Assembly (NCBI RefSeq): GCF_029227855.1
Contig: NZ_CP074356.1
Direction: 5' to 3' (one strand)
DNA from: Escherichia coli
GTDB lineage: Bacteria; Pseudomonadota; Gammaproteobacteria; Enterobacterales; Enterobacteriaceae
Length of the DNA: 64,000 bases
Shown here: piece by piece, positions 1 to 44,699 of the stretch
Numbering within the stretch: position 1 is the stretch's first letter
Layout: each line of letters begins with the position of its first letter
Translations under genes and position numbers: made by a program
The notes under the pieces: generated by a model
Databases searched by the model: none
Told to the model about the DNA's origin: nothing
The model's input: the letters and a program-made list of their open reading frames with translations, nothing else

Positions 1-5656
<5,656 letters not shown>

Positions 5657-5968: not shown

Positions 5969-6044
5969 TGGCTCCTCTGACTGGACTCGAACCAGTGACA
6001 TACGGATTAACAGTCCGCCGTTCTACCGACTGAACTACAGAGGA
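5969..6044 (-). tRNA. asnT: tRNA-Asn (anticodon GUU)
   Basis: Reverse complement reads TCCTCTGTAGTTCAGTCGGTAGAACGGCGGACTGTTAATCCGTATGTCACTGGTTCGAGTCCAGTCAGAGGAGCCA, 76 nt; K-12 order yeeJ-asnT-mtfA-serU. Confidence 0.9.
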
Positions 6045-6144
6045 ATCGTGTGAACGGGGCGCATATTACTTAGCGGTACCTTGTCTGTCAACACTAAATT
6101 TCATAAGTCATTTCAATTGGTTAATTAATCTGCAAAGTTGTTAA

Positions 6145-6942
6145 TTAATGAACATTCGTCGTCGAAAACGAGTCTGTATCATTAGCGTGGTGCAGTCTCT
6201 GCAAAGGATCTTGTTGATAAAATTGGCAGAAACGTTGCCACAATGAAGGGAAACGAGGAGCAAAAAGTTCTGGGGCGCTAAAGAAATATTCAGAAAGTAC
6301 GGCAAAACATTCAGCAGGATCACTGGCAGCATAAGCATCAATGCTCGCCGCATTCTCGCCAACCAATTCGATTTCTTCCTGAATGTTGTTCATTGCAGCA
6401 TGAAGATCGTATTCCCAGCCAGCAACCTCACGCAACGGAATAAAGGGAACTCCGCTGGCGCGATCGCCGTTACGGGTGTCCAGCTTATGAGCGACTTCAT
6501 GAATAATCAGGTTAAAACCAGAAGCATCAAAAGAATCTTGTATATCCAACCAGTTCAAAACGATAGGCCCTTGCTGCCAGCTCTGACCTGACTGAACAAT
6601 ACGTTGGTTATGCACCAGACCGATATCGTCTTCCCATTCATCATCGACCACAAATGGCGCAGGATAAATTAAGACTTCATGAAAACCATCCAGCCATTCC
6701 AGTCCTAACTCCAGAACGGGCAGGCAAAATAGAAGTGCTATCCGGCAGCTTCTTAATGAATCCAGTTCAAAGCCCTGTAAAGGAACAAGCCGCTTTTGCT
6801 GTAAAAAACGTTCGGCAAGAGTGACTAATTTGCTTTGTTCCTGTTCCGTCAGACACGTTAAAAGGGGGATCGATAGTGCTTCCTGCCAGGGAAGGGCAGT
6901 TTGATGTGCTGATTCTTGTACTTTCCAGGGCCACTTAATCAT
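6145..6942 (-). CDS. mtfA: Mlc titration factor MtfA (YeeI), 265 aa
   Basis: Track ORF 6145..6981 contains [23 protein letters not shown]...; start trimmed to the MIKWPWK methionine. Confidence 0.9.
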
Positions 6943-7035
6943 CGTTTTGCTCGCAAACTCGTCACTTGAACAAAATTGCACGGACAGGGACTGTTAAAAT
7001 GCCAAATTTCCTGGCATCATGGCAACCATCTGAAC

Positions 7036-7125
7036 GGAGAGATGCCGGAGCGGCTGAACGGACCGGTCTCGAAAACCGGAGTAGGGGCAACTCTACCGGG
7101 GGTTCAAATCCCCCTCTCTCCGCCA
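7036..7125 (+). tRNA. serU: tRNA-Ser (anticodon CGA); prophage attachment target
   Basis: GGAGAGATGCCGGAGCGGCTGAACGGACCGGTCTCGAAAACCGG...CCCCCTCTCTCCGCCA, 90 nt with long variable arm; its 3' 62 nt are repeated at 63384..63445. Confidence 0.9.
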
Positions 7126-7177
7126 AAATTCAATCACTTATACATCATTAAGTCAGTGACAAAAATCACACTTGGAA

Positions 7178-8203
7178 TTACTTGGAATATTTTCTTGGAA
7201 TATTTTCAGGTAACGGGACATCAAGTGTCGGTGAAACTTTAACCTTCCTGTCATAGATTAGCACTTGCCCCTCGGTTTTGTGACCAGAGAAAAGTTGCTT
7301 ATCCCGACTGCTTCCTTCATAGTCTGAAATTCCTTTCGCCTTCAGATCATGAAAGGTGAAGTCGGTTAAAATACCTGAAATTTTGCCTGCGCGATTTCTT
7401 GCTTCTACCCACATTTCGTTAAAGCCTTTGTACATATATCGGTTGCCGTACTGATTGCTGATTACATAGGCGGATGTTGGTAACTGTTTTGCTTTTTCGA
7501 TCGCCGCCTGTAATCGTGGACTCCATGCTTTTATCTGTTTTTTTCCTGTTTTCCCTTGCTGGATAAAGATCCCGTCGTTTCCAATCTGCTCCCATTTCAG
7601 CGATAACACATCGGAAACCCTCGCTGCACACAGATAGGCAATTTCCATTGCGATAAAAACAGGAAGAGGTGCAACGCTTAATACTGCCTGGTATTCTTTG
7701 TCGGTTACATATCGTTCGCGGTTTTTGGCCTTGAATTTACTTACACCTGCACATGGGTTAGCCTTCACGTACCCTCGCTCATACCCCCAACTGTAAACGC
7801 GGGACATACTGCTTTTTTCATGGTTGGCTTGCGTTTTACTCTGTTCCCCTCTCTTGTCCATGTATCGACGGATGTGTTCTGGTTTTATGGAATCTGCCGG
7901 CACCTTACCGAATACGGCAAGCAACTTTTTTTGATGTTGCAGATAATCTTTTTGTGTTCTTGGACTGAGGTCACTGTAATAGGCGCTGGCGAGGAATTTT
8001 TCCCACAAGCGACCGAATGTCATTGCACGATCGCGATTATTTACAGTTTCCTCATACTTTTTCCATAAAGCAGCTAAACCATCCTTGATGGCGGTTAGTG
8101 TTACAGATTCTCTGGATGTTGGTTTCCATACATAACTATATTTATTTGGGTATACATTTGGAGGTAATTTTTCGTGTTCAGGATTTTTCCTTCGTCTTCC
8201 CAT
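7178..8203 (-). CDS. int: Prophage tyrosine integrase
   Basis: 341-aa ORF next to tRNA-Ser with a lambda-family integrase C-terminal region (..AWSPRLQAAIEKAK.., ..HDLKAKGISDYEGS..). Confidence 0.9.
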   Translation of the reverse strand: MGRRRKNPEHEKLPPNVYPNKYSYVWKPTSRESVTLTAIKDGLAALWKKYEETVNNRDRAMTFGRLWEKFLASAYYSDLSPRTQKDYLQHQKKLLAVFGKVPADSIKPEHIRRYMDKRGEQSKTQANHEKSSMSRVYSWGYERGYVKANPCAGVSKFKAKNRERYVTDKEYQAVLSVAPLPVFIAMEIAYLCAARVSDVLSLKWEQIGNDGIFIQQGKTGKKQIKAWSPRLQAAIEKAKQLPTSAYVISNQYGNRYMYKGFNEMWVEARNRAGKISGILTDFTFHDLKAKGISDYEGSSRDKQLFSGHKTEGQVLIYDRKVKVSPTLDVPLPENIPRKYSK

Positions 8204-8406
8204 CAGATCGCACCAAAATTCGGCTCTACCTCGCGTGGTGGTAAAGTTTTATTGCAGGTAAATAGATCCCGGCTGACAATCGGTTTGCCACTACGATTGG
8301 TATAGAACGGAAGCCCGTTTTCCATTAACCATTTTCGCTGGTGGCTTGCATATTTGCAGCCCGTTAATATTAGCAATTCATCTTCGGTTAAAAATAAGCT
8401 GCTCAT
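8203..8406 (-). CDS. xis: Excisionase-like small protein
   Basis: 67-aa ORF immediately upstream of int with start/stop overlap; the Xis call is positional. Confidence 0.55.
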   Translation of the reverse strand: MSSLFLTEDELLILTGCKYASHQRKWLMENGLPFYTNRSGKPIVSRDLFTCNKTLPPREVEPNFGAI

Positions 8407-8464: not shown

Positions 8465-10906
8465 TTAAAAATCAGCCTGACTCGGGATCAGTTTTTGCCA
8501 GATAGCTGAAACGTATTTTGCCTGGTAACGAGCGTCATCAAGTGCATTATGGCGCTCACCTTCGAATGGAATAGCCGTTCTGGCATCGAAGTCTATGGCT
8601 TTCCCCAGCTCAACGATTGTGCGTACATCGCGATCGTTGTAGTAACGCCACGGGCAGGGGATCCCCTGCCGTTCGTATGAACGGCGCAAAATCGTGTTGT
8701 CGAAGTTGGCTCCATTTCCCCAGACCTGAACAAAAAATTCACCGGAGTTTTCGTCGATAAATTCCCGCAATTGTAACAGTGCATCATCTAACGGGATTTC
8801 ATCGGTCATAATGGCAGATTGCGCTTCGCGTGATTGCTTAAGCCACCATTTAATGGTGTCCCGATCAATGACTCCGCCAGCAGTTTCCAGATCGATAGTC
8901 TTACTAAATTCCGGTCCCATATCTCCGGTTTGCGGATCGAAAAATATTGCACCTATTGAGATGATCGGGGCATCAGGATTTTTTCCCATGGTTTCAAGGT
9001 CGATCATTAGATGGTCACACGTCCTGCTGGTGGATGTGATTTCGTGATGACCATTCACCGTAATTAAGGGATCTGCCGTCTCGCCAGTTTTACTATCGCT
9101 GGCGTGGTCCTGAGCGCTGCCAGCATTCTCCTTGTGTGGATGTTCAGCGCCTTCCATTTCCTCCGGATCATTTTCCTGAACTTCAACCTGATTCTCTTCA
9201 TCGAATGTTTTCTGGTATGTTGCGTCGCCCATCACCGCGCCACAATCAGGGCAGTTGCCGCCACCGCTCTGACCGCAGGCGGAGCAGACTTTTTCCGGTT
9301 CCTGTTGCGCTACTGGTTCGGATTGTTTCGTTTCTGGCTCGTTTTGTAACGCATTTGGGCTGTTTTGTTCCGCTTTTTGGTCGTTCCGTTCCGATTCATG
9401 CTGGTTCTGGTTCACAGAATCGCGAGTCTGGATCCCCTTGACCCATTTCGGATCATTAGGGTCGCTAATCCCCTCAACAAATTCACCACGCGATACAGCA
9501 AGTAACTTATCGGCGTCAGGCTGGCTGATATTGGCTGCCTGCATAATTTTGTTTACTTCGTCAGCGGTGACTTTTACTTGGTTAGCGGAACTCACCTGCG
9601 ACTGAGCATCCAGCGACTGCGCGTTCTGGCAATGTTCAGTTGTATCCGGTTCCATTGTTTCAGTTGTTGCCTGTTCACCTGCCATTGCGTCAGATGGTTG
9701 TGGTTTTTCTTCTTCTGTTTCACGCTCAGTAACCACCTCGCGGTTAATTTCTTCCAGGATATCTTTTTCCGGCGTATGCCGGGCAGCTGTGAGAGTTTCC
9801 TTGCTGGGGTTCTCGTGATCAGTTTCCGTCAAATAGGCGTTGATATACCCCTGAAGGCGTCCCGGGTAGTGATAAAATTCAGGGTGTGCGCTTCGGATAA
9901 GTGCAAAAATAGCGGCGCGGGAATAGTCCAGAATACCCGGGGTTGCACGAAGTGCTGCGGACCATTCTTTGAACGGACTTTCTTTTTTCAGGACTACTTC
10001 TTTTGCGCGACGATAAACGCTGCCCGGAATTTCATAAATATTAAAATCCATCGGAAGTGTGGCTGCTGCAATCTCCACATCCAGTGTGTCGAGGGTGTGT
10101 ACTAAATTCGGACTGCGATCGGTTTTGTTCCCACCGCCAGCATTAGCACCGGAAGCCGTGCGGGTGATGCGTGAAACACGATTTCCTTTCATCCACTCTT
10201 TTGTCAGCAGACCCCGATCAGTGTAGTCAGCGTCCAGGTATGCTTCGAAAAAAGCAGTTATTAGTCCCAGGTCTGAATTACCAGGATTAGGGAAAACTTT
10301 GTCAGTGTCACGAACCAGTTTGTGGAGGTCGCGAATCTCCAGCGAGTCGAGCAGACTGGTTTTATGCGAAATAGCCAGGGCAGTAACAGCCGGTAGTTCT
10401 TCAGCCCGTGCAATGTGTAATGCCTGGAGTTCGTCGCGTGAAACGTGCGTTACTGGTTTTTCGCTGCCGTGTTGAGCAAGCCAACGAATGGGCAGTTCCT
10501 GACCGGAGACAGGTAGAAGCATGCTCTCCTCAATCTCAGTCATGTCTTCGCCGTTGATGTTGGTATTATCAGTGCTGGCTGATTTGTCCTGAACAGAGGG
10601 GGAAGGGCCGATAAATGTCATTGTGATGCCATCTTTCCCGCCTTTTTCATAGCGGTTGCAGAATTCAGTATCAAACACGCCTTCTGGCGGAAGGTCGTCA
10701 ACAACGGGCAAATTGACGCGGACGGGTTTTTTAAAGTCGTCTTCATCATAATCGTTGTCATCCATTGCGGTAATGCAGCGGGAGATTGCAACAGATAATT
10801 TTTTTGCTGTAGTCCAGTAAAAACCACCTTTAATTCCTAGGCGTTTTCTTACTTTGTCATTTTTTGCTTCGCAATATAGTGCAAATTCTTCTTTATCAGT
10901 GCTCAT
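8465..10906 (-). CDS. Phage exonuclease-domain protein (DEDDh 3'-5' exonuclease C-terminal domain), 813 aa
   Basis: C-terminus has [10 protein letters not shown]...[10 protein letters not shown] and ..[16 protein letters not shown] motifs typical of DnaQ-like exonucleases; large acidic linker region. Confidence 0.7.
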
Positions 10907-20692: not shown

Positions 20693-20769
20693 CGGTCCTT
20701 TAGCTCAGTGGTGAGAGCGAGCGACTCATAATCGCCAGGTCGCTGGTTCAAATCCAGCAAGGGCCACCA
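20693..20769 (+). tRNA. Phage-borne tRNA with CAU anticodon (Met or lysidine-Ile2 type)
   Basis: GGTCCTTTAGCTCAGTGGTGAGAGCGAGCGACTCATAATCGCC...GGGCCACCA; cloverleaf folds. Confidence 0.85.
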
Positions 20770-20874
20770 TCACAAACCGCCATTAGCTTATCAGGAAGAG
20801 CAGACGACACGATAACAGGGGTGTTGGTGCGGGGGGGGGGCGGGTCCCCGATGGCGGTCCATTATCGGTATTCA

Positions 20875-20951
20875 GCGTTGTTAGCTCAGCCGGACAGAGC
20901 AATTGCCTTCTAAGCAATCGGTCACTGGTTCGAATCCAGTACAGCGCGCCA
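20875..20951 (+). tRNA. Phage-borne tRNA-Arg (anticodon UCU)
   Basis: GCGTTGTTAGCTCAGCCGGACAGAGCAATTGCCTTCTAAGCAATCGGTCACTGGTTCGAATCCAGTACAGCGCGCCA. Confidence 0.85.
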
Positions 20952-26168: not shown

Positions 26169-26339
26169 GAGGTTGCCCTGTATTCAGTGTCGCTGATTTG
26201 TATTGTCTGAAGTTGTTTTTACGTTAGGTTGATGCAGATCAATTAATACGATACCTGCGTCATAATTGATTATTTGACGTGGTTTGATGGCCTCCACGCA
26301 CGTTGTGATATGTAGATGATAATCATTATCGCTTTACGG

Positions 26340-26540
26340 GTCCTTTCCGGTGATCCGACAGGTTACGGGGCGGCGACCTCGCGGGTTTTCGCTATTTATG
26401 AAAATTTTCTGGGGAAAATCATGTCGGTACTTCTCGAACATAACTATTTGTTTTTTCTAATATCGAATCCGTAAAAGGTCCGACATGAAAACGCCTAAAA
26501 AAGTCATTTTCGGGCACTTTCATGTCGGCCCCTGTATTTA
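26340..26540 (+). other. Prophage cos site: lambda-identical cosN (cohesive end GGGCGGCGACCT at 26369..26380) with a non-lambda cosB (three CATGTCGG-type elements)
   Basis: ACGGGTCCTTTCCGGTGATCCGACAGGTTACG|GGGCGGCGACCT|CGCGGGTTTTCGCTATTTATGAAAATTTTC matches lambda; downstream repeats differ from lambda R sites. Confidence 0.8.
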
Positions 26541-32499: not shown

Positions 32500-32775
32500 A
32501 TGTCGATGTACACAACCGCCCAGCTGCTGGCGGCAAATGAGCAGAAATTTAAGTTTGATCCGCTGTTTCTGCGTCTCTTTTTCCGTGAGAGCTATCCCTT
32601 CACCACGGAGAAAGTCTATCTCTCACAAATTCCGGGGCTGGTAAACATGGCGCTGTACGTTTCGCCGATTGTTTCCGGTGAGGTTATCCGCTCCCGTGGC
32701 GGCTCCACCTCTGAATTTACGCCGGGATATGTCAAGCCGAAGCACTTAGCATGGCTTTCTGAGGCTTTCGTGTAG
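32500..32775 (+). pseudogene. E: Major capsid protein E, 5' fragment (codons 1-82) disrupted by insertion
   Basis: MSMYTTAQLLAANEQKFKFDPLFLRLFFRESYPF...EFTPGYVKPKH matches lambda gpE, then reads into foreign sequence (LAWLSEAFV, stop at 32775). Confidence 0.85.
32735..32744 (+). repeat. Left copy of 10-bp direct repeat AGCCGAAGCA (putative att core of the inserted element)
   Basis: Identical 10-mer at 43864..43873 exactly where E homology resumes. Confidence 0.6.
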
Positions 32776-32907
32776 CTGCTGGTTTTTACACTTAATCTTT
32801 TGATAATAAAGAATAAGTTTATCTGGCGCTTTCACTGAATTTTCCTCGTTATCTGTGTGTTGCAATCATCTCTGTATTGCAGCTTGTATTGCTTTTTGGG
32901 GCTAAAA

Positions 32908-34143
32908 ATGGCTGGCGAGAACAAACTGAGCGACAAAGCGCTTAAAGGATATCTGGGGAAACCCAGAGAAAAGCAGATCACCATTGCTGATGGAAAGGGG
33001 CTTTCTATTCGTGTGAGTACTAAAGGGGCTGTGAGCTTTGTTTTCTTCTACAGGTTAGCAGGTGGCCGGGCTGCTCCGGTCTGGCTAACGTTGGGTAAAT
33101 ATCCTGATATGTCACTCAAACAGGCAAGGGAAAAGCGCGACGAGTGCCGTGGTTGGTTGGCTGACAAACGTGATCCGCGTATCCAGATTAAGATTCAGGC
33201 TGAAGAACGCTTAAAGCCGGTCACAGTGGAGGATGCACTAAATTACTGGTATGAAAATTACTGTAAGGTGCGTCGTAAAACTCATGCTGTAACGCTTGGC
33301 AGATTTCGAAAGCATATCTTTCCCTATATCGGTCATTTGCCCGTAAATGACACTCACCTATATGAATAGCTGGACTGTTTTGACCGAATTAAACGTAATG
33401 CACCAGTTATGGCGGCGTATGTTTTTTCTGACACTAAATTAGCTCTTCGTTTTTGTCGGGTACGCCAGTACGCGACGTGTGATGCTTTAAAGGATTTGCG
33501 CATGAGTGATGTGGGGCAGATTGCAGGTAAGCGGGATCGGGTTCTGGATGAGGTCGAACTCGGCCAGCTCTGGAAGGCAATTTTTGTCGAGCCTGATTTA
33601 AAACTAATGTCTGAATACACGCGAAAAATGTTTGTGCTTTGTACAGTATTTGGATGTCGAATGAGTGAAGCCCGATTATCAGAATGGAGCGAATGGGATC
33701 TCGAAAGTTGGGTTTGGACTGTGCCAAAAGATCACTCAAAAACTGGTGTTGAAATCGTCAGACCAGTACCTGAAATTCTACGACAGTGGGTAACGGATGT
33801 TCACGAAGAGACAAAACATACTGGTTATGTGCTGGGAAGTCTGCGAATTAGAGAAAGCGTAAGCAAGATTGGGGGGAAAATCGGTAAACGTTTGGGCCAT
33901 GAAAAACAATGGTCACTACACGACCTTAGAAGAACGCTATCTACTCATCTAAGTGATCTCGGTGTTGAATTTTATGTAGTAGAACAACTGTTAGGCCATG
34001 CGCTACCTGGCGTGGCAGGTGTTTACAACCGGAGTAAGTTTATGGCTAAAAAACTGGATGCTCTGGAACTCTGGACTACATATCTCAATAGCATCGCAGC
34101 TGCTGATTCAAAAGTGACAATCCTCAAACAAAAGGCTGGTTAG
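32908..34143 (+). pseudogene. int: P4-type tyrosine integrase interrupted by an in-frame amber codon (TAG at 33367..33369)
   Basis: Track ORFs 32857..33369 and 33409..34143 are in the same frame; P4-int-like N-terminus (..KGLSIRVSTKGAVSFVFFYR..GKYPDMSLKQAREKRDE..); TAG sits where homologues have Trp. Confidence 0.8.
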
Positions 34144-34144
34144 C

Positions 34145-34375
34145 ATGAAAAAAATGGCAATTGTTGATAAAAAGGGTCTGGAGTACATTCCTAACATTGA
34201 CCGAATGATCCGTGAGAAAGAATGTCGGGAGCTAACTACTCTTGCGAACAGCACACGCTGGAAGCTGGAGAAGGAAGGAAAATTTCCTAAGCGGATCAAG
34301 ATTGGTTCCACTGCTGTTGCATATCGTCTTTCAGAAGTGCAGGCATGGATTCGAGGTGAGTGGGAAACAACTTAA
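34145..34375 (+). CDS. alpA: AlpA-family transcriptional regulator / excisionase-like protein
   Basis: 76 aa, HTH (..CRELTTLANSTRWKLEKEGKFPKRIKIGSTAVAYRLSEVQAWI..) directly after int. Confidence 0.75.
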   Translation: MKKMAIVDKKGLEYIPNIDRMIREKECRELTTLANSTRWKLEKEGKFPKRIKIGSTAVAYRLSEVQAWIRGEWETT

Positions 34376-34382
34376 CTATTAG

Positions 34383-35213
34383 GTGGGCATTGTGGCTATA
34401 TTTCATTATACAGATCTTTTTGGTTTGAAAGGTATATTAGACTCTAATTCTTTATGGGCTACAAACATATATTTCTTAAATGATAAAGAGGAGTCTAACC
34501 ATGGATGTGAATGCTTTCGAAATACAATTAAAATAGTTGATGACAATATCATTCCAAAAGATAAGAAAACTATTTTGCTCAAGTCTCTTGACATGTATGA
34601 GAAAGGGAGGTTACAAAAAGAAAAAGGGATTGATAAACATGTTTATAGCATCTCTTTTTGTAAGGAAAACGATAAGTTAAGTCAGTGGAGAGGTTACGGA
34701 AATAAACAGGGTGTTTGCATTGAGTTTGATGCGGATGAACTTGTGAGCTTTTCTCAAAATATTTATTTAAATTGTGTTGCACATGATGTTATATATTCAA
34801 ATAATAACGATATTACTAAGATGAGTAAGGAGTTGGGAGAGTTTTTTTCTTGTAATGGTATTAATATTAAAGAAATGAATGATCATTTTGTAACAATGGT
34901 CTCTACGTATCAATTTATATCTAAATACATCCCATTTTTTAAACATCCTAGTTTTATCGAAGAGAATGAATTTAGATTGGTATTTACTCCGTGGATGCAA
35001 ATGCCAGATGTGCACTTCAGAATAAATAATAATGGGATCATCCCTTATATCATCATTGATAATAAAGATAATAGAAAGTTACCAATTAAAAGCATTACAA
35101 TTGGCCCGACAAACGATTATGATTTCATTGAGGCTGGTATAAAAATGTTCTTGGATTCAAGAGGATTTAGTTCTGTGGAAATTAAATCCTCATCAATTCC
35201 ATTCAGGGGGTAA
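34383..35213 (+). CDS. DUF2971-like protein (276 aa), AT-rich cargo gene
   Basis: N-terminal IFHYTDLFGLKGILDSNSLWATNIYFLNDKEE resembles the DUF2971 signature; very low GC; start could be GTG 34383 or GTG 34391. Confidence 0.6.
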   Translation: MGIVAIFHYTDLFGLKGILDSNSLWATNIYFLNDKEESNHGCECFRNTIKIVDDNIIPKDKKTILLKSLDMYEKGRLQKEKGIDKHVYSISFCKENDKLSQWRGYGNKQGVCIEFDADELVSFSQNIYLNCVAHDVIYSNNNDITKMSKELGEFFSCNGINIKEMNDHFVTMVSTYQFISKYIPFFKHPSFIEENEFRLVFTPWMQMPDVHFRINNNGIIPYIIIDNKDNRKLPIKSITIGPTNDYDFIEAGIKMFLDSRGFSSVEIKSSSIPFRG

Positions 35214-35344: not shown

Positions 35345-35701
35345 TCAATATTTAGGTGGTTCAACAAGAGCGTTTATCATTGCTCTCAAATTATCGCGAA
35401 CACTTATCCAAGTCTGTTCTGCTCGTTCTAACTCATCAGTGTACAACTTTAATGTTTTATCTATGCCATATGTGGCTATTAAATTTATAGCTTCTTGTAA
35501 TTTTTCAGGATTATTCCTTCTTGGGGGAGTGAATATACCACGGATTTTTCCGGTAATTAAAGCTTTACGGTGTCTACATAGAATACCTTTACTTCCTGCT
35601 GGACAATTACAAGTCATGATTAGCGAGCCAGAATCGTTTGATACAGTGACTATGTATACATCCAAACTACTGCTACTTGTTGCGAAGAATTCGTATTTCA
35701 T
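35345..35701 (-). CDS. Small SWIM-type zinc-finger protein (118 aa)
   Basis: CNCPAGSKGILCRH (CxC..CxH) motif; AT-rich. Confidence 0.55.
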   Translation of the reverse strand: MKYEFFATSSSSLDVYIVTVSNDSGSLIMTCNCPAGSKGILCRHRKALITGKIRGIFTPPRRNNPEKLQEAINLIATYGIDKTLKLYTDELERAEQTWISVRDNLRAMINALVEPPKY

Positions 35702-36871: not shown

Positions 36872-37171
36872 ATGGAAATGAAAAATTCTGGCTTTATTGC
36901 CAGCGGCCCCGCTCGGCCTGAATTTATGAACGGCGATATTTACCGCGATAAATACGGCGGCACGGTAACGATTAAAGGCGTGGCAGAACGGCGCATCACT
37001 TACCGCCGTGAGGGGTATAGCTATGACTGCGTGATGCCTGTTTATCAGTTCCGGCGTGATTTTTCCCTGGTATATGCCGCACCCCGCAGTAAGCCCATCA
37101 GCAGGGAAAAAGCGCGGGGAAACATCCAGAAAATGAAAAGCATGATTAACGCATTCAGGGGCAAAAAATGA
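36872..37171 (+). CDS. Small hypothetical satellite protein (99 aa)
   Basis: Track ORF, stop overlaps primase start. Confidence 0.45.
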   Translation: MEMKNSGFIASGPARPEFMNGDIYRDKYGGTVTIKGVAERRITYRREGYSYDCVMPVYQFRRDFSLVYAAPRSKPISREKARGNIQKMKSMINAFRGKK

Positions 37172-38919
37172 AACTGGCACCGAACTTAAAAAAACAGCCA
37201 CGCGACAGACTGACAGAGGTAATCATCTTTGCAGGTAGTGATGCGTGGAGCCATGCGAAAGAGTGGCGGGAATGGGCGGGTAAACATATTGCCGCCGACG
37301 ATGTGCCGCCTGTCGTGCTGGCTGATGAGCAACTGAAAAATATCACCGATTACCGGATCATTGATGAAGATCGTCAGTGTGTGCGTGTTTACCGCGCAGG
37401 ACATATCACAGAGCACAGCATGACGCAGATTGTTACGTTACTGGCTGTGGCTGGAGTGAAGACCGTACACGAATACGCGGGGATTACTGACACCAGCCCA
37501 GTGGATTTATCCGAGCAGTTGCCGCGACTCAAAGAGGAATGCGAGCGTGGGGAAAGTCTGGTGCTTAATCTTCCGACGAAGCAAAAGGCGCAACTTTCAC
37601 AGATGGCAGACAGTGAACGTGCACAACTACTTGCCGATCGCTTTGATGGTGTGTGTGTTCATGCAGAAAGTGAAATCGTCCACGTATGGCGCGGCGGGGT
37701 ATGGTGTCCGGTCAGCACAATGGAGCTGAGCCGCGAAATGGTGGCGATCTATTCAGAGCACAGGGCCACGTTCAGCAAACGTGTAATCAATAACGCCGTG
37801 GAAGCGTTAAAAGTTATTGCCGACCCCATGGGGGAGCCGTCCGGTGATTTGCTACCGTTCACTAATGGTGTGCTTAACCTGAAAACGGGGGAATTTTCTC
37901 CGCACTCGCCGGAGCACTGGAGCACCACGCACAATGGCATTGAGTACACGCCACCAGTAGCAGGGGAAAACATCCGCGATAATGCGCCAAATTTCCATAA
38001 ATGGCTTGAACATGCTGCAAGAAAAGACCCGCGCAAGATGATGCGTATATGTGCCGCGTTATACATGATTATGGCGAACCGCTACGACTGGCAGATGTTC
38101 ATTGAGGCCACCGGAGACGGGGGAAGCGGTAAGAGTACATTTACCCATATTGCCACCCTGCTTGCTGGCAAACAGAACACCGTAAGCGCGGAGATGACAT
38201 CACTCGATGATGCAGGAGGGCGCGCGCAGGTTGTCGGGAGTCGTCTTATCGTCCTTGCCGATCAGCCGAAATATACGGGGGAAGGCACGGGCATCAAGAA
38301 AATCACGGGAGGCGATCCCGTTGAAATTAACCCGAAATATGAGAAGCGATTCACGACGATAATAAGGGCGGTGGTACTGGCAACCAATAACGACCCGATG
38401 ATCTTTACCGAACGGGCCGGAGGTGTGTCACGCCGTCGGGTGATTTTCCGGTTCGACAACATTGTAAGGGAGGACGAAAAAGACAAGGAATTACCGGAAA
38501 AGATAGCGGCAGAAATCCCCGTAATTATCCGCCGCTTGCTGGCTAATTTTGCTGACCCTGAAAAGGCACGGGCTTTATTACTGGAACAGCGTGACGGTGA
38601 TGAAGCTCTGGCAATAAAGCAGCAAACGGATCCGGTTGTTGAGCTTTGCGCGGCGCTGGAGTTTCTGGAGGAAGCTCGTGGGCTAATGATGGGCGGTGGT
38701 GGTGACACCGTGAAGTACACGACCAGAAACAGCCTTTACCGTGTCTATATGGCCTTCATGGCATACACAGGAAAGGGGAAATGTTTGAGCGTGAATGAGT
38801 TCGGAAAGGCTATGAGGTCAGCGGCGAAAGTTTACGGATATGAATATATTACGCGAAAAGTTAAGGGAGTCACGCAGACCAACGCAACGACTACTGATGA
38901 TTGCGATGCGTTTTTATAA
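37168..38919 (+). CDS. Primase/replicase (P4 alpha / D5-type), 583 aa
   Basis: Walker A GDGGSGKST in the C-terminal half; large N-terminal domain; followed by iterons. Confidence 0.8.
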   Translation: MKLAPNLKKQPRDRLTEVIIFAGSDAWSHAKEWREWAGKHIAADDVPPVVLADEQLKNITDYRIIDEDRQCVRVYRAGHITEHSMTQIVTLLAVAGVKTVHEYAGITDTSPVDLSEQLPRLKEECERGESLVLNLPTKQKAQLSQMADSERAQLLADRFDGVCVHAESEIVHVWRGGVWCPVSTMELSREMVAIYSEHRATFSKRVINNAVEALKVIADPMGEPSGDLLPFTNGVLNLKTGEFSPHSPEHWSTTHNGIEYTPPVAGENIRDNAPNFHKWLEHAARKDPRKMMRICAALYMIMANRYDWQMFIEATGDGGSGKSTFTHIATLLAGKQNTVSAEMTSLDDAGGRAQVVGSRLIVLADQPKYTGEGTGIKKITGGDPVEINPKYEKRFTTIIRAVVLATNNDPMIFTERAGGVSRRRVIFRFDNIVREDEKDKELPEKIAAEIPVIIRRLLANFADPEKARALLLEQRDGDEALAIKQQTDPVVELCAALEFLEEARGLMMGGGGDTVKYTTRNSLYRVYMAFMAYTGKGKCLSVNEFGKAMRSAAKVYGYEYITRKVKGVTQTNATTTDDCDAFL

Positions 38920-39208: not shown

Positions 39209-39466
39209 ATGCACACTTCAGGAAAACTGAACAAACATATAAAGCCACATTACCGCGCCCTTGATATGGCTGAACACTGGCTAAGGGTGGCGATTAAGGC
39301 AATAGACCGCAACGCCGGGGAAGGATACGCGAAAGCACATCCCGAACTGATAAGCGCATTCATGACAACGGCGGCTGCAAACTTTGCCACGCTGACCGAA
39401 CGGGAGATTGCTGAAGCGGAGGAAGTGACAACAATCAATATTAAGTCCGGAGAGCAGGCAGCATGA
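39209..39466 (+). CDS. Hypothetical satellite protein (85 aa)
   Basis: Track ORF, translationally coupled to the SSB gene. Confidence 0.45.
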   Translation: MHTSGKLNKHIKPHYRALDMAEHWLRVAIKAIDRNAGEGYAKAHPELISAFMTTAAANFATLTEREIAEAEEVTTINIKSGEQAA

Positions 39467-39912
39467 CGGCGCAAATATCAGTTTACGGGCGGTTGGTGGA
39501 CGACCCGCAGACAAAACAGACCAGCAAGGGCACCCCCATGACGCTGGCGCGTATGGCGGTATCACTGCCCTGCAGTCAGTCGGATGACGGTCTGGCGACG
39601 TTGTGGTTATCTGTCCTGGCGTTTGGCAGACAAGCCGACGCGCTGGCAAAGCATCACAAAGGCGAACTCCTGAGCGTGGCGGGTAACATGCAGATGAGCC
39701 AGTGGACTGGACAGAACGGCGAAACGCGGCAGGGCTGGCAGGTTATCGCAGACAGCGTAATCAGTGCGCGATCGGTGCGACCGGGCGGCAAAAAAGGCCA
39801 ACAGGGGCAGGCTACTGACGCACTGAACAGAGCAAAACAACAGGCAGATCAGCAAGGAAGCCAGCCACCAGAGGGAGATAATGAGCAATGGGGAGATGAT
39901 ATCCCGTTTTAA
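39463..39912 (+). CDS. ssb: Single-stranded DNA-binding protein
   Basis: OB-fold-like N-terminus, Gly/Gln-rich linker and acidic C-terminal tail ending DDIPF. Confidence 0.8.
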   Translation: MTAQISVYGRLVDDPQTKQTSKGTPMTLARMAVSLPCSQSDDGLATLWLSVLAFGRQADALAKHHKGELLSVAGNMQMSQWTGQNGETRQGWQVIADSVISARSVRPGGKKGQQGQATDALNRAKQQADQQGSQPPEGDNEQWGDDIPF

Positions 39913-40128: not shown

Positions 40129-41169
40129 ATGGTTGATTTATATTCGCCTACTCAGCTTGTACAGGTAGTTAATGCTGTAGATGTACAAAAACAACTAAAT
40201 GCGTTGTTTACCAGTTTGTTTTTTACTCGCTCGGTAATGTTTGAATCGCGCGATATTATTCTTGATACAATCGACGATCCAAATATCCCAATTGCAGCGT
40301 TTTGTTCTCCTATGGTGGGTAGTAAAGTTTCACGTGACGAAGGGTACGAATCAAAAACAATTCGTCCAGGCTATATGAAGCCGAAAAGCAGCATTGATCC
40401 AAATAAGTTAGCTGTGCGCCCTGCTGGTGTGTCACCTGAGCAATACAATGCTTTTGGGGCGCGTAATATTAAAGTTAAACAGGCGATTGTAAATCAGGCT
40501 AAAGCTATTCGTGCACGTATTGAATGGCTTGCTGTTCAGGCAATCACAACGGGGAAAAATATCATTGAGGGCGATGGTATTGAACGTTATGAGCTGGACT
40601 GGAATATAAAACCACAAAATATCATCACTCAGTCTGGCGGTACTGAGTGGTCAGGTAAGGATAAAGAAACTTTTGATCCAAATGATGATATTGAGAGCTA
40701 CGCAGAATTTAGTGAGGGCGTCACTAATATCATCATTATGGGTGGTAATGTATGGAAGAAATACCGTTCATTCAGAGCGATAAAAGAGGCTTTGGATACC
40801 CGTCGTGGTTCTAATTCCGAACTGGAAACGGCCCTTAAAGACCTTGGTGATTCGGTGAGTTTTAAAGGGTATATGGGCGATGTTGCGATTGTTGTTTACA
40901 GCGGGCGTTATACCGACGAGGACGGAACAGAAAAACATTTCCTTGATCCTGATTTGATGGTGCTTGGCAATACGGCTCTTCAGGGGATTGTCGCCTATGG
41001 CGGTATTCAGGATCCGGAGCTAATCCGAATGGGGCTGACTAAAGCCGAACTTGCACCGAAAAACTATATTGTGCCTGGTGATCCGGCTATTGAATATGTG
41101 CAGACACATTCAGCACCACAGCCAATACCGGCCCGCATCAATCGTTTTGTTACCGTTCGCATTGGCTAA
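40129..41169 (+). CDS. Satellite-encoded major capsid protein, lambda gpE family (346 aa)
   Basis: Collinear similarity to gpE (ITQSGGTEWSGKDKETFDPNDDIESYA..., ..LDTRRGSNSELETALKDLG..GDVAIVVYSGRY..MVLGNT..); start set at MVDLYSPTQ with AGGA RBS. Confidence 0.8.
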   Translation: MVDLYSPTQLVQVVNAVDVQKQLNALFTSLFFTRSVMFESRDIILDTIDDPNIPIAAFCSPMVGSKVSRDEGYESKTIRPGYMKPKSSIDPNKLAVRPAGVSPEQYNAFGARNIKVKQAIVNQAKAIRARIEWLAVQAITTGKNIIEGDGIERYELDWNIKPQNIITQSGGTEWSGKDKETFDPNDDIESYAEFSEGVTNIIIMGGNVWKKYRSFRAIKEALDTRRGSNSELETALKDLGDSVSFKGYMGDVAIVVYSGRYTDEDGTEKHFLDPDLMVLGNTALQGIVAYGGIQDPELIRMGLTKAELAPKNYIVPGDPAIEYVQTHSAPQPIPARINRFVTVRIG

Positions 41170-41178
41170 GGGGGAGCA

Positions 41179-41520
41179 ATGGCTACTCATTACACTGAAC
41201 TCATGGCTGGCACTGAAGCACTGGTGACTACGCTGGGGATATTTTCAGCTAATAAAGGGGTAATTCCTGCATTTACGCCACTGATGCAGGAAGATGCAAC
41301 AGGTGCACTGGTGGTATGGGATGGTTCGAGCGTAGGTAAAGCGGTTTATGTTTCCGCTGTACAAATCGACACCGCGAAAAAAACACAGGCTCAGGTCTAT
41401 AAGACAGGTGTCTTAAATGTTGATGCTCTGAACTGGCCTGAGTCTGTTAAAGAACTGTCAGTAAAGGTTGCAGCGTTTGTTGGCTCAGGTATTTCTGTTC
41501 AGCCGCTGGCTCGTGTGTAA
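41179..41520 (+). CDS. Satellite-encoded head decoration protein, lambda gpD-like (113 aa)
   Basis: Shares THY, TPLM, LVVWDG, YKTG, WPE, AF.G..IS motifs with gpD at matching positions. Confidence 0.7.
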   Translation: MATHYTELMAGTEALVTTLGIFSANKGVIPAFTPLMQEDATGALVVWDGSSVGKAVYVSAVQIDTAKKTQAQVYKTGVLNVDALNWPESVKELSVKVAAFVGSGISVQPLARV

Positions 41521-41531
41521 AGGGGGATACA

Positions 41532-41915
41532 ATGCAGAATGATTACAATGACCTTAAGCCAATTGCCGAAATGATGTACCCGAATCAAGCTGTAGAGGAA
41601 TTAAAAGCTATCGCTGACAAAATGTGTTTAAGCGAGCGCCTTGTTGATATGAATCAGGTGATGGAAATTACAACCCTGAGTCGTCGTACACTGCTAAACC
41701 TTGAGGCTAGTGGAGAGTTCCCGGAGCGTGTGCAGGTTACGGAAGGGCGTAAGGCCTGGTATTTAAGTGAAGTGATCGACTGGATAAATAATATTCCTCG
41801 CGCTTCTGAATATTGCCGCGTACCTGTCCCAAAAAAGCCAGATGCGGCGCTATGCCTCAAGATTGAGCGTGTACGCCGCAATGCACGGGATGGTCGCTAT
41901 AAGCTGATTGGTTGA
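41532..41915 (+). CDS. AlpA/MerR-like winged-HTH protein immediately upstream of the satellite cos
   Basis: 127 aa with HTH (..MNQVMEITTLSRRTLLNLEASGEFPERVQVTEGRKAWYLSEVIDWINN..). Confidence 0.6.
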   Translation: MQNDYNDLKPIAEMMYPNQAVEELKAIADKMCLSERLVDMNQVMEITTLSRRTLLNLEASGEFPERVQVTEGRKAWYLSEVIDWINNIPRASEYCRVPVPKKPDAALCLKIERVRRNARDGRYKLIG

Positions 41916-41939: not shown

Positions 41940-42145
41940 GCGGGTCCTTTCCGGCGATCCAGAACGTTACGGGGCGTCAGGCGCGCAGTTTTTCGCTATT
42001 TGTGAAAATTTTCCTGTTTAAGGCGTTTCCGTTCTTCTTCGCCGTAACTTAATGTTTTTATTAAAAACACCCCCTAAAAAGAAAGGAAACGACAGGTGCT
42101 AAAAACAGGCTTTTTGGCCTCTGTCGTTTCCTTTCTCTGGTTTTG
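41940..42145 (+). other. Second cos site, belonging to the satellite: altered cohesive-end sequence (GGGCGTCAGGCG at 41972..41983) with lambda-type cosB elements
   Basis: GGGTCCTTTCCGGCGATCC..GTTACG|GGGCGTCAGGCG|CGCAGTTTTTCGCTATTTGTGAAAATTTTCCTGTTTAAGGCGTTTCCGTTCTTCTTCG..GAAAGGAAACGACAGGTG..TCTGTCGTTTCCTTTCTC tracks lambda cos closely. Confidence 0.75.
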
Positions 42146-42513: not shown

Positions 42514-43656
42514 TTAACTCCTTATTAGAGAGTAAATTCCATCCTCTTTAAGGAAGTCTATTACTTCAAAGAATGAGATAAAGAATTCCCAAGAACCAAA
42601 AGCATATGCATGAATTTCGTAAGGTGCAAAATGGAATCTAAATCCATCACTATTTATTGTGAACGAGTCTAAGTTACTATCCATGATACCCGTTGCAAAC
42701 GTACTAATGTCGTCCTCACTTGGTTTTTCACCAGTTTTCTCCCAAAATTCACGAGCTGATTCAGAGATTATTTTTTGTTTTATCTTATTAATCGCTTCTT
42801 GCTCTTTCCCTTCGGTAAATACATCCCATAAACTAAATTTGTATGCGTAGTCATCCTTGGTTATTACGAAATTACTAGTTTCAAAATGACTGTTAGGGTG
42901 TGCTGCTCCCGCACCATACCAATGTACGGAATGAAGGATGCTCATGACATTTTCGTTACAGTATGAGATGTTATAACTTTCATTATAGGAACTAGTGTAA
43001 GTGTGTTTATATTCTTCATCCCAATATGGTGTTCCTGGCCATAGTGATGTGCGTTCAGAAAAAATATGTAAAGCCGCTTTTCCTGAAAAGTAATCACTAA
43101 TGAGTTTTGCTGATTTCGGTAATGTATGGCTTTCAATTCTTGGATATGCTATTTCAATTTCATGCCCTGGGATCTTGTTATATTCTTCCTTGAAAACCTC
43201 GCTGCTAAAGTTAAATGGCCCATAAGTGATACCTTGAGATATTTCAAGTTTTTGTTGCGATGCTGCTAATCTTAAAGATCTAGATAAAATGTCCCAACCA
43301 TCATTTCTCTTAAAATCAATGAATTGGAGCTTGCTTGATATGTAGGCGGGTACTTCGCAATCATCAATAAGTAATGGTATCACGAACACATCATCTGGTT
43401 TGTAATACTTTAGTTTATCAATGGCGTCATTTATTTCGCGGCGAATATAACCATTTTTCTGAGTGCTCACTTTGCTAAGGATAAGGATTATCAAGTTTGA
43501 ATTAGCGAAGTTTTTTTGGATTTCATAATCCCAGTTTACGCCAGCGGGTATATCTTTTACATCCATCCAAGGGGAATATCCTCCACTTTTTAGCCTTTCA
43601 TAGATTTCTTCAGTTATCGTTTCATCTTCTTTTGCATGAGCAAGAAAAATTTTCAT
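42514..43656 (-). CDS. TIR-domain protein with ~250-aa C-terminal domain of unknown function (380 aa); candidate anti-phage defence gene
   Basis: N-terminus MKIFLAHAKEDE...SNLIILILSKVS..YIRREINDAIDK..VIPLLIDD fits the bacterial TIR pattern; AAGGA RBS; AT-rich; between satellite cos and right att repeat. Confidence 0.75.
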   Translation of the reverse strand: MKIFLAHAKEDETITEEIYERLKSGGYSPWMDVKDIPAGVNWDYEIQKNFANSNLIILILSKVSTQKNGYIRREINDAIDKLKYYKPDDVFVIPLLIDDCEVPAYISSKLQFIDFKRNDGWDILSRSLRLAASQQKLEISQGITYGPFNFSSEVFKEEYNKIPGHEIEIAYPRIESHTLPKSAKLISDYFSGKAALHIFSERTSLWPGTPYWDEEYKHTYTSSYNESYNISYCNENVMSILHSVHWYGAGAAHPNSHFETSNFVITKDDYAYKFSLWDVFTEGKEQEAINKIKQKIISESAREFWEKTGEKPSEDDISTFATGIMDSNLDSFTINSDGFRFHFAPYEIHAYAFGSWEFFISFFEVIDFLKEDGIYSLIRS

Positions 43657-43863
43657 TGAATATTCCTTTATAATTTAACTAATTAAGTGAAGGAGGCTTT
43701 ACTTGGCTGTGTTAGAAAAAATTCGGTTTGTTTTTTGTACGATGCCAAGAAGGCTTTTCCCTAACCATGTATTGCAGCATGTATTGCTACGTAATTCTGC
43801 ACCCTCTCATTTATAAAATAAATCTCTGTTAAATCAAGTATCTTTTTTCTATTTGACTCATGT

Positions 43864-43873
43864 AGCCGAAGCA
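43864..43873 (+). repeat. Right copy of 10-bp direct repeat AGCCGAAGCA
   Basis: Identical to 32735..32744; E reading frame resumes immediately after. Confidence 0.6.
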
Positions 43874-44699
43874 TGAGGTGAATCCGCAGATGACCCTGCG
43901 TCGCCTGCCGGATGAAGATCCGCAGAATCTGGCGGACCCGGCTTACCGCCGCCGTCGCATCATTATGCAGAACATGCGTGACGAAGAGCTGGCCATTGCC
44001 CAGGTCGAAGAGATGCAGGCAGTTTCTGCCGTGCTTAAGGGCAAATACACCATGACCGGTGAAGCCTTCGATCCGGTTGAGGTGGATATGGGCCGCAGTG
44101 AGGCGAATAACATCACGCAGTCCGGCGGCACGGAGTGGAGCAAGCGTGACAAGTCCACGTATGACCCGACCGACGATATCGAAGCCTACGCGCTGAACGC
44201 CAGCGGAGTGGTGAATATCATCGTGTTTGATCCGAAAGGCTGGGCGCTGTTCCGTTCCTTCAAAGCCGTCAAGGAGAAGCTGGATACTCGTCGCGGCTCT
44301 CATTCCGAGCTGGAGACAGCGGTGAAAGACCTGGGCAAAGCGGTGTCCTACAAGGGGATGTATGGCGATGTGGCCATCGTCGTGTATTCCGGACAGTACG
44401 TGGAAAACGGCGTCAAAAAGAACTTCCTGCCGGACAACACGATGGTGCTGGGGAACACTCAGGCACGCGGTCTGCGCACCTATGGCTGCATTCAGGATGC
44501 GGACGCACAGCGCGAAGGCATTAACTCCTCTGCCCGTTACCCGAAAAACTGGGTGACCACCGGCGATCCGGCGCGTGAGTTCACCATGATTCAGTCAGCA
44601 CCGCTGATGCTGCTGGCTGACCCTGATGAGTTCGTGTCCGTACAACTGGCGCAATCGTGGCCCTTCGGGGCCATTTTCTCTCTGTGGAGGAGTCCATGA
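43866..44699 (+). pseudogene. E: Major capsid protein E, 3' fragment (codons ~80-341) plus 15-codon readthrough extension
   Basis: PKHEVNPQMTLRRLPDEDPQNLADPAYRRRRIIMQN... matches lambda gpE to ..DEFVSVQLA; the lambda stop position reads CAA here, so the frame runs to TGA at 44697..44699. Confidence 0.85.

Follow-up and report, generated by a model that had tools for sequence, protein, structure and literature searches.

A PICI-like satellite embedded in gene E, the major capsid gene, of its lambdoid helper prophage in Escherichia coli, and its own copy of the target site

The stretch analyzed here, called the window, is 64,000 nucleotides of Escherichia coli DNA and carries a helper prophage that adjoins tRNA-Ser. 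The prophage genes form a lambda-type late operon: terminase, W, portal, protease, and D, then FI, FII, Z, U, V, G/T, and H, on to J. An 11,129-bp element lies within this operon, with lambda-type head and tail genes on either side, and splits the lambda-E-type major capsid gene in two. The 5′ fragment of helper E (32500–32744, plus strand) holds codons 1–81 and the CA of His82, as judged from its translation, its identity to the gene of an IMG/VR locus (L002), and its match to Pfam Phage_cap_E. This left-hand reading frame starts MSMYTTAQLL, reads TPGYVKPKH, and then continues into unrelated sequence, where it meets a stop codon 10 codons into the satellite DNA. The 3′ fragment (43874–44699, plus strand) resumes at the T of His82 and runs to Ala341 and beyond. 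The element is bracketed by direct repeats of AGCCGAAGCA, a 10-mer that has only two copies in the 64-kb window, at 32735–32744 (plus strand; the attL copy) and 43864–43873. The sequence directly after the right copy is EVNPQMTLRRLPDED. The initial annotation had the repeat overlapping the K-P-K-H codons of helper E, and the left copy of AGCCGAAGCA indeed covers K79-P80-K81-H82. The repeat is not a chance match, as 0.10 copies are expected per window and two or more copies were found in 0 of 100 dinucleotide-preserving shuffles.

When 32500–32744 and 43874–44651 are joined, they encode a 341-amino acid lambda-E-type capsid protein. This protein matches Pfam PF03864 (Phage_cap_E), with residues 5–339 aligned to model positions 1–328, which places K79–H82 at about profile position 75–80. 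Compared with the uninterrupted gene of L002, the rejoined helper E shows 100% identity over residues 1–341. Because the rejoined gene is intact at this identity, the 11,129 bp between the repeats represent an insertion. Deleting the element together with one copy of the repeat precisely regains the E reading frame; this restoration, like the anatomy of the locus, is directly observed. We also searched 5426 complete E. coli genomes with a junction probe, and matches to uninterrupted E genes stop exactly at 32744 in about 3200 of them.

The left end of the element encodes a tyrosine integrase (32908–34143, plus strand), for which Pfam recognizes Arm-DNA-bind_3, SAM-like, central, and catalytic domains in an intact homologue. 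It is followed on the plus strand by an AlpA-type excisionase/transcriptional regulator (34145–34375; PHROG 2790, E 5.8e-18) and by a variable zone with a DUF2971 accessory protein (34383–35213, plus strand; PHROG 1762 and the RefSeq annotation of the homologue in a related element, L001). A SWIM-domain protein and small ORFs are also encoded. The replication module consists of a satellite DNA primase/replication protein (37168–38919, plus strand; PHROG 864, E 2.9e-161), whose relatives are annotated as DNA primase family proteins, and a single-stranded DNA-binding protein (SSB; 39463–39912, plus strand; PHROG 44, E 1.9e-37). Next on the plus strand is the satellite's own major capsid gene (40129–41169), which encodes 346 amino acids and, like helper E, matches Pfam PF03864 Phage_cap_E; the protein is WP_000228111.1 in L001 and in strain NRG857c. 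The neighboring gene (41179–41520, plus strand) encodes a lambda D-like head-decoration protein of the HDPD family (PHROG 49, E 1.3e-25; PF02924 on homologues), and the late zone also holds a second AlpA-like helix-turn-helix protein (41532–41915, plus strand; PHROG 2790, E 3.2e-49). The genes int, alpA, and pri are all on the plus strand, co-oriented with helper genes A to J, including the interrupted E.

Several non-coding features also mark the element. When the element was compared by blastn with the remainder of the window, a 73-bp cos-like segment (41941–42013, plus strand) showed 82% identity to helper positions 26337–26409, which lie upstream of the helper terminase genes. A doubled TGTATTGC motif, presumed to be an arm-type site, lies on the plus strand at 32873–32892, about 132 bp downstream of the attP center (its start is 133 bp from the core center). 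A second doubled motif (43768–43787, plus strand) ends about 81 bp upstream of that center. The doubled motif, TGTATTGCnnnnTGTATTGC, has only these two copies in the window, where 0.01 are expected.

A 380-amino acid ORF on the minus strand (42514–43656) was considered as the integrase and rejected: it encodes a TIR-domain protein (PADLOC TIR models, E 1.6e-17; annotation of L001), variable cargo and a probable defense gene, and the integrase is at the left end. Two other satellite classes were rejected as well. The head module has the capsid and decoration proteins only, and none of the element's ORFs is a portal, protease, or large terminase subunit, which does not fit a capsid-forming PICI (cf-PICI). 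A P4-like satellite was set aside, even with an integrase and a primase present, as Psu, Sid, and Delta were not found among the ten of the element's ORFs taken into our PHROGs scan or among the RefSeq annotations of relatives. The arrangement itself was already published in 2023 by Tommasini, Mageeney & Williams, as the helper-embedded PICI (HE-PICI) “11capE” with site E:Phage_cap_E:80. The element in the window has the features of the 11capE type, namely a late gene E that is disrupted, no replacement sequence in attP, an integrase, co-orientation, the doubled motif, and the identity block. Assignment of the integrase to the 11capE clade is by 99.4% nucleotide identity to that of the NRG857c element and the same domain architecture.

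The satellite and helper capsid genes can be compared directly at the target site. BLASTP aligns the satellite capsid protein with the rejoined helper E at 42% identity (E 7e-86), pairing helper PGYVKPKH with satellite PGYMKPKS, gap-free nearby. The initial annotation had read AAGCCGAAAAGCA (M-K-P-K-S) at the position of the satellite gene homologous to helper AAGCCGAAGCAT (K-P-K-H), and had noted that it differs from the core; both readings are correct. In the window AAGCCGAAAAGCA is a single copy, at 40378–40390 on the plus strand, in frame with the satellite capsid ORF as (ATG) AAG CCG AAA AGC A. Codon alignment sets helper AAG CCG AAG CAT GAG against satellite AAG CCG AAA AGC AGC. This self-site equals the 10-mer at positions 1–7 (AGCCGAA) and differs at positions 8–10 (AAG versus GCA) and beyond, with the His-Glu codons gone. 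At codon 78, the satellite gene has ATG where helper E has GTS. The by-eye alignment of the self-site in the initial annotation amounts to a 2-nt AA insertion relative to the codon alignment. Over their full length, the two genes have 50% nucleotide identity, and codons 75–81, the left half of the site, reach 76%, which ranks 21 of 332 windows of the comparison.

An 8-nt stretch, AAGCCGAA, matches exactly between the two capsid genes at these homologous codons, and homologous recombination through it might be supposed to have produced the insertion. We give this almost no credence. The junctions are non-coding att arms, one 7.6 kb upstream of 40378 and the other 3.5 kb downstream of it; the satellite capsid gene itself is unbroken, and 8 nt is too short for RecA-dependent recombination. 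The anatomy of the element thus refutes this origin.

Next, we looked at how widely the target is conserved. The E genes fetched from IMG/VR with a protein seed were all relatives at least 97% identical and thus uninformative on family-wide conservation; a protein homologue search, an alignment, and a degenerate DNA pattern were used in their place. The homologue search with the satellite capsid, in which P0001 and P0002 are 99% identical, yielded a sample of 104 full-length homologues that are 38–99% identical to the satellite capsid. Residues P75, G76, Y77, and K79 are invariant in this sample, P80 and K81 are each present in 103 of the 104 sequences, and H82 is present in 78. At the DNA level, at least 13 versions of the 10-mer occur among IMG/VR genes that encode PGYxKPKH, and the wobble positions vary freely.

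The insertion site is equally constant. This integrase gene, at coverage of at least 80%, is present in 174 of the 5426 complete E. coli genomes, and 172 of these 174 have the E/satellite junction. The two integrase-carrying genomes without a full-length E junction may hold off-target copies, diverged E alleles, or truncations. A left-end-only probe of IMG/VR found 56 satellite left ends, all at the K-P-K codon and all already found by the K-P-K context probe. Furthermore, Scandinavium and Cedecea hold satellites whose capsids are related, again inserted at this codon of E-family genes; the prophages concerned have contractile-type tail genes. This recurrence is directly observed, and it supports the proposal of the initial annotation that the tyrosine integrase targets a conserved capsid-gene motif: P-G-Y-x-K-P-K is near-invariant in the 104 homologues, insertions recur at the same codon, and the E junctions found place the element in the capsid gene rather than at unrelated, non-capsid sites.

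It also bears on whether the 10-bp repeat could be a chance repeat or a transposase target-site duplication, with the element a transposon or random insertion. Short direct repeats are also typical of transposition, and target-site duplications can be 10 bp long. However, no transposase is encoded, and a tyrosine integrase and AlpA stand at the left end; 172 genomes and 56 viral contigs have the insertion at one and the same codon, and the satellite ends are conserved. In the Cedecea element the repeat is only 7 bp, which fits an attP/attB identity block rather than a duplication, and precise excision to attP and attB has been measured experimentally (PMC10111431). A chance repeat is opposed by the expected count given above. 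We consider this origin exceedingly improbable, and the recurrence of the same site refutes it.

To delimit the crossover region, we used att variants from 58 attL and 50 attR junctions in IMG/VR, in which variation of the core is directly observed. Core positions 2 and 5, the wobble bases of K79 and P80, are variable. Of 27 contigs with both junctions, 21 have the same bases at these positions in attL and attR, with five variants represented, so the satellite attP usually matches the helper's synonymous codons. In four contigs one side has AACCC and the other AGCCG, with each of the two orientations seen twice. Mixed pairs of this kind are what would be expected of heteroduplex across a mismatched overlap, segregating at replication; homologous recombination among E alleles, once the satellite had integrated, could likewise produce them. 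At position 8, all 58 attL junctions, on the satellite side, have G, and 7 of the 50 attR junctions, on the helper side, have A. In the Cedecea element, attL and attR share only AACCAAA. Because positions 2 and 5 vary, position 8 differs between attL and attR, and only 7 bp are shared in Cedecea, the strand-exchange region is most simply, and probably, core positions 1–7 (AGCCGAA).

The attR core (43857–43879, plus strand) places this 7-mer within a perfect inverted repeat, CTCATG-T-AGCCGAA-G-CATGAG, the right arm of which is the His-Glu codons of E. RCAYGAR follows the 7-mer in 56 of 56 attR-like junctions, a count that is partly circular, as most loci were fetched by a pattern requiring CAYGA. 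The left (B) arm of attB has little similarity to the left arm of attP. From these comparisons, the recognition element may be the overlap A-R-C-C-N-A-A together with CAYGAR as a right-hand core-type site.

We propose the following mechanism for this family. The attP site on the satellite would pair with attB in E, and the satellite's own P4-like tyrosine integrase would act at codons 79–82. Strand exchange would occur inside the 7-bp overlap A-R-C-C-N-A-A, here AGCCGAA, the position of which we infer from the att variants. The overlap would be flanked by CTCATGT on the satellite side and by R-CAY-GAR on the E side (the K81 wobble base and the His and Glu codons), and the two flanks together would make an inverted pair of core-type sites, with the doubled TGTATTGC motifs serving as arm sites at about −81 and +132 from the attP center. 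With E split, the helper would have no capsid protein until precise excision of the satellite regains the reading frame. Since the satellite is co-oriented with the late operon, it would be replicated, and probably transcribed, passively with the helper. That the window holds an 11capE-type helper-embedded PICI, integrated in E codons 79–82 by its own integrase in this way, is very probable in our judgment.

The particular copy in the window appears to be degraded. Integrase codon W154, upstream of the catalytic domain, is an amber TAG here (33367–33369) and TGG in L001 and other relatives. Additionally, the stop of helper E, which is TAA in 59 of 59 comparison genes, is CAA at 44652–44654, and the 3′ fragment therefore runs on for 16 codons. 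Given the integrase amber and the lost E stop, the copy is probably immobile, and we read the window copy as probably a decaying, immobile composite. As the sequence stands, without complementation in trans the satellite would be unable to excise and the helper unable to make capsid protein. Because the integrase of the window carries a nonsense codon, the proposed mechanism is one for the family and not for a copy shown to be active.

We then turned to the satellite's own capsid gene as a possible target. The initial annotation suggested protection of this copy from self-insertion, an idea already put forward in PMC10111431 and one that we find plausible on comparative grounds. PGYMKPKSS is encoded by 17 of 17 satellites, of which 15 are complete elements (that of the window, that of L001, and those of 13 IMG/VR loci) and two are those of Scandinavium and Cedecea, and the wobble bases of these sites vary independently of the att cores. 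A junction between the satellite's own capsid gene and a satellite end occurs in 0 of the 5426 complete E. coli genomes. Under the proposed mechanism, the satellite gene keeps the whole 7-bp overlap and would not be used as a target because its right-hand core site is missing, with AGC AGC in place of CAY GAR. The 10-mer is thus probably not what sets the self-site apart, as the probable 7-bp crossover region appears intact there.

A second satellite-type capsid gene shows that the core is only part of the matter. The capsid gene of a chromosomal PICI (P0041 type, L292), a very common one, encodes PGYMKPKHE, and its sequence, AGCCAAAGCACGAA, holds a complete used core variant plus CAYGAR. A junction between this gene and a satellite end was found in 0 of about 590 matching genomes among the 5426 searched. 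Since a perfect core followed by His-Glu is unoccupied, a matching core is not sufficient, and something beyond the core contributes to specificity or to selection acting once integration has occurred: either the left arm has a role, or insertions are lost when they lie outside a helper.

The divergence of the self-site may have arisen in two ways. E-targeting satellites may be under selection to keep Ser-Ser at 82–83 as immunity to self or sibling integration. The other reading is passive, unselected drift of a paralogue, in which failure of self-insertion is incidental or such insertions are simply lost, and we would give it an even chance of being right. At the 50% overall nucleotide identity of the helper and satellite genes, mismatched codons 82–83 are unremarkable, with no demonstrable excess over chance, and the 76% over codons 75–81 is explained by PGY-KPK constraint. 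Ser-Ser is common to one group (P0001–P0008, 72–99% identity), and residue 82 is H, N, or K in related satellite-type capsids. The unoccupied PICI site adds to this, as non-use there does not require loss of His-Glu. Selection does predict the pattern found, Ser-Ser in all 17 E-site satellites versus His-Glu in the chromosomal PICI examined, but this pattern is inseparable from shared ancestry in these data. Because the Ser-Ser capsids are closely related, they are probably one clade, and the correlation is effectively a single evolutionary event.

A further possibility concerns the overlap itself. Repeated integration and excision with mismatched overlaps may lead the attP overlap to track the synonymous variants of the helper. 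We put forward jointly, and only tentatively, (a) recognition of the 7-bp overlap plus CAYGAR, with Ser-Ser as selected immunity, and (b) tracking of helper codons by attP; the two together seem to us rather unlikely to be correct in full. If (b) is true, satellite and helper co-evolve in site affinity at the wobble positions of an essential capsid motif.

A helper-embedded satellite is a parasite of a virus that sits inside an essential late gene of its helper. Its excision gates production of the helper capsid, and the satellite shares in the helper's replication and, probably, its transcription. This gating has been in print since 2023, and the window is a further instance. What we add is that the target may be better described as a 7-bp overlap with flanking His-Glu codons than as a 10-mer, that the presence of a perfect core does not suffice to make a satellite-type capsid gene a target, and that the window copy appears to be decaying. 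The refinements (the 7-bp overlap, the CAYGAR half-site, and the unused perfect PICI core) are incremental and inferential. For genome scans, this class of element can be recognized by “major capsid protein ×3” where an integrase separates the fragments.

The closest known system is Eco567.11capE of E. coli NRG857c, an 11-kb PICI-like element in the capsid gene of a lambdoid prophage, with a 10-bp attL/attR identity block (PMC10111431). Figure 1A of that paper sets the att site against lambda E and the capsid homolog encoded within 11capE, and its self-site comparison gives the same conclusion on self-integration as the initial annotation (PMC10111431). The same insertion codon of a lambda-E-type capsid gene is occupied in the window. 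The two elements have the same AlpA and share a backbone of primase, SSB, capsid, decoration, and HTH proteins, and the backbone is 97.5–99% identical over the integrase/AlpA end and the replication/capsid region. Self-site AAGCCGAAAAGCA is identical in the two satellite capsid genes. The published HE-PICI doubled motif, tgTGTATTGCantgTGTATTGCa, lies on both sides of the attP center, 81 bp upstream of it and 132 bp downstream (PMC10111431), and the doubled TGTATTGC motifs of the window have this spacing. Shared cos-region sequence was also reported at the same place (PMC10111431).

The window differs from NRG857c in several respects. The identity block is AACCCAAGCA there and AGCCGAAGCA here, a synonymous variant listed in the supplement, which gives aacccaagca, agccgaagca, and agcccaagca as identity blocks for the site group (PMC10111431). 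In the window, 7 contiguous positions of the 10-bp core are shared with the self-site; with the NRG857c variant, which departs from the self-site also at positions 2 and 5, 5 of 10 are shared. The cargo is TIR, DUF2971, and SWIM proteins here and DUF262 and HEPN proteins in NRG857c, and the helper is beside tRNA-Ser rather than icd. Furthermore, in comparison with NRG857c, the integrase of the window has a nonsense codon and its helper E is without its stop. On induction of NRG857c, precise excision of both the satellite and the composite was seen, with the satellite leaving after the composite had excised and replicated; no virions of helper or satellite were recovered in that system (PMC10111431). 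The paper's instances number 201, and it notes a truncated or abandoned appearance for many helpers (PMC10111431).

Chromosomal PICIs such as EcCICFT073 (Fillol-Salom et al. 2018, 2019, as relayed in PMC10111431) resemble the window element, to the extent that they are described there, in size (about 10–11 kb), in having lambdoid helpers, and in the order int, alpA, variable zone, pri/SSB, capsid, decoration, and cos region. In that description, they differ in being integrated in chromosomal genes away from the helper, with which they interact only in trans. Our chromosomal PICI example, L292, is flanked by a JmjC-family gene and phoQ, not far from icd, and its capsid paralogue retains K-P-K-H-E, unlike the capsids of the E-site satellites.

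The recombination system can also be set beside that of phage lambda. In attP-attB recombination by lambda Int, the 7-bp overlap must largely match between the partners and shows site-affinity (saf) behavior. Like lambda, the window element has a tyrosine integrase with an arm-binding domain and arm-type repeats on either side of the core. The mixed attL/attR pairs described above, found in both orientations, also fit such a system. No IHF-like motif is reported for HE-PICIs (PMC10111431), and the overlap position here is a proposed one. A further difference is the target, which in lambda is a chromosomal intergenic site and here is a phage late gene that integration inactivates.

The satellite's right junction in the helper capsid gene E, attR, contains a perfect inverted repeat at 43857–43879, CTCATG-T-AGCCGAA-G-CATGAG, in which the His and Glu codons of E make up the right arm. 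Judged from the sequence, this arrangement suggests core-type integrase binding sites around a central 7-bp overlap. The cores at attL and attR are not always equal, as they differ at wobble positions in 6 of the 27 composites of helper prophage and satellite (IMG/VR: L208, L253, and two more contigs, as well as L202). Among the IMG/VR composites, AACCC/AGCCG attL-attR pairs were found in both orientations, and some pairs show a G/A difference at core position 8. Such unequal cores fit either an integration event in which the overlaps were mismatched or subsequent recombination among alleles of E.

The capsid gene is the satellite's target irrespective of tail type. E-family capsid genes are split by the same satellite type in prophages of Scandinavium (L295) and Cedecea (L296), both of which have lambda-like head genes alongside baseplate, sheath, and tail-fibre genes of the contractile-tail type. 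A capsid gene that is very common among E. coli PICIs carries AGCCAAAGCACGAA (10250–10290 of the chromosomal-PICI locus L292), which comprises a full used variant of the att core plus the His-Glu codons. The L292 PICI is located between a JmjC-family gene and phoQ, and no junction of a helper-embedded PICI with a capsid gene of this type was found among 5426 genomes. One IMG/VR contig (L120) has two PGYxKPKH-encoding sites on one strand (4245–4268 and 8827–8850), separated by 4.6 kb, which could reflect either a pair of E-family genes or a nested element.

Within the satellite, a 73-bp segment (41941–42013) is 82% identical to helper positions 26337–26409, upstream of the helper's small terminase gene. 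This segment presumably serves the satellite as a cos site at which the helper terminase packages its DNA.

Two signs of decay were observed in the window's composite. In the satellite integrase gene, an amber codon interrupts the reading frame ahead of the catalytic domain (TGG to TAG, W154*, 33367–33369); the gene is intact in the relatives from L001 and E. coli NRG857c. Self-driven excision of this satellite copy is probably not possible. The second sign is the lost stop codon of helper E, where CAA replaces TAA (44652–44654), so the open reading frame is extended by 16 codons and ends at a TGA that overlaps the start of FI. The stop is TAA in each of the 59 IMG/VR E genes used for comparison.

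The variable cargo of the satellite consists of genes for a DUF2971 protein (34383–35213, plus strand), a SWIM zinc-finger protein (35345–35701, minus strand), and a TIR-domain protein (42514–43656, minus strand; PADLOC TIR models, E 1.6e-17). In their place, the type element 11capE of NRG857c has DUF262 and HEPN genes. A similar TIR/DUF3298 gene is present in a Cedecea relative. The cargo genes are likely exchangeable anti-phage defence cassettes.

The late-regulatory region of the helper prophage contains tRNA-Met(cat) and tRNA-Arg(tct) genes (20694–20951; ARAGORN). RefSeq labels the tRNA-Met(cat) counterpart in the near-identical Ec-U3 prophage as tRNA-Ile, presumably reflecting a lysidine-modified CAT anticodon. 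tRNA-Ser(cga) (7036–7125) adjoins the prophage end (region 5969–8406), where the helper also encodes an apparently intact 341-aa integrase (7178–8203, minus strand); tRNA-Asn and mtfA lie immediately outside the prophage. The published composite (PMC10111431) is located in icd, whereas the window's composite is at tRNA-Ser(cga), and one satellite type is therefore carried by lambdoid helpers at differing chromosomal sites.
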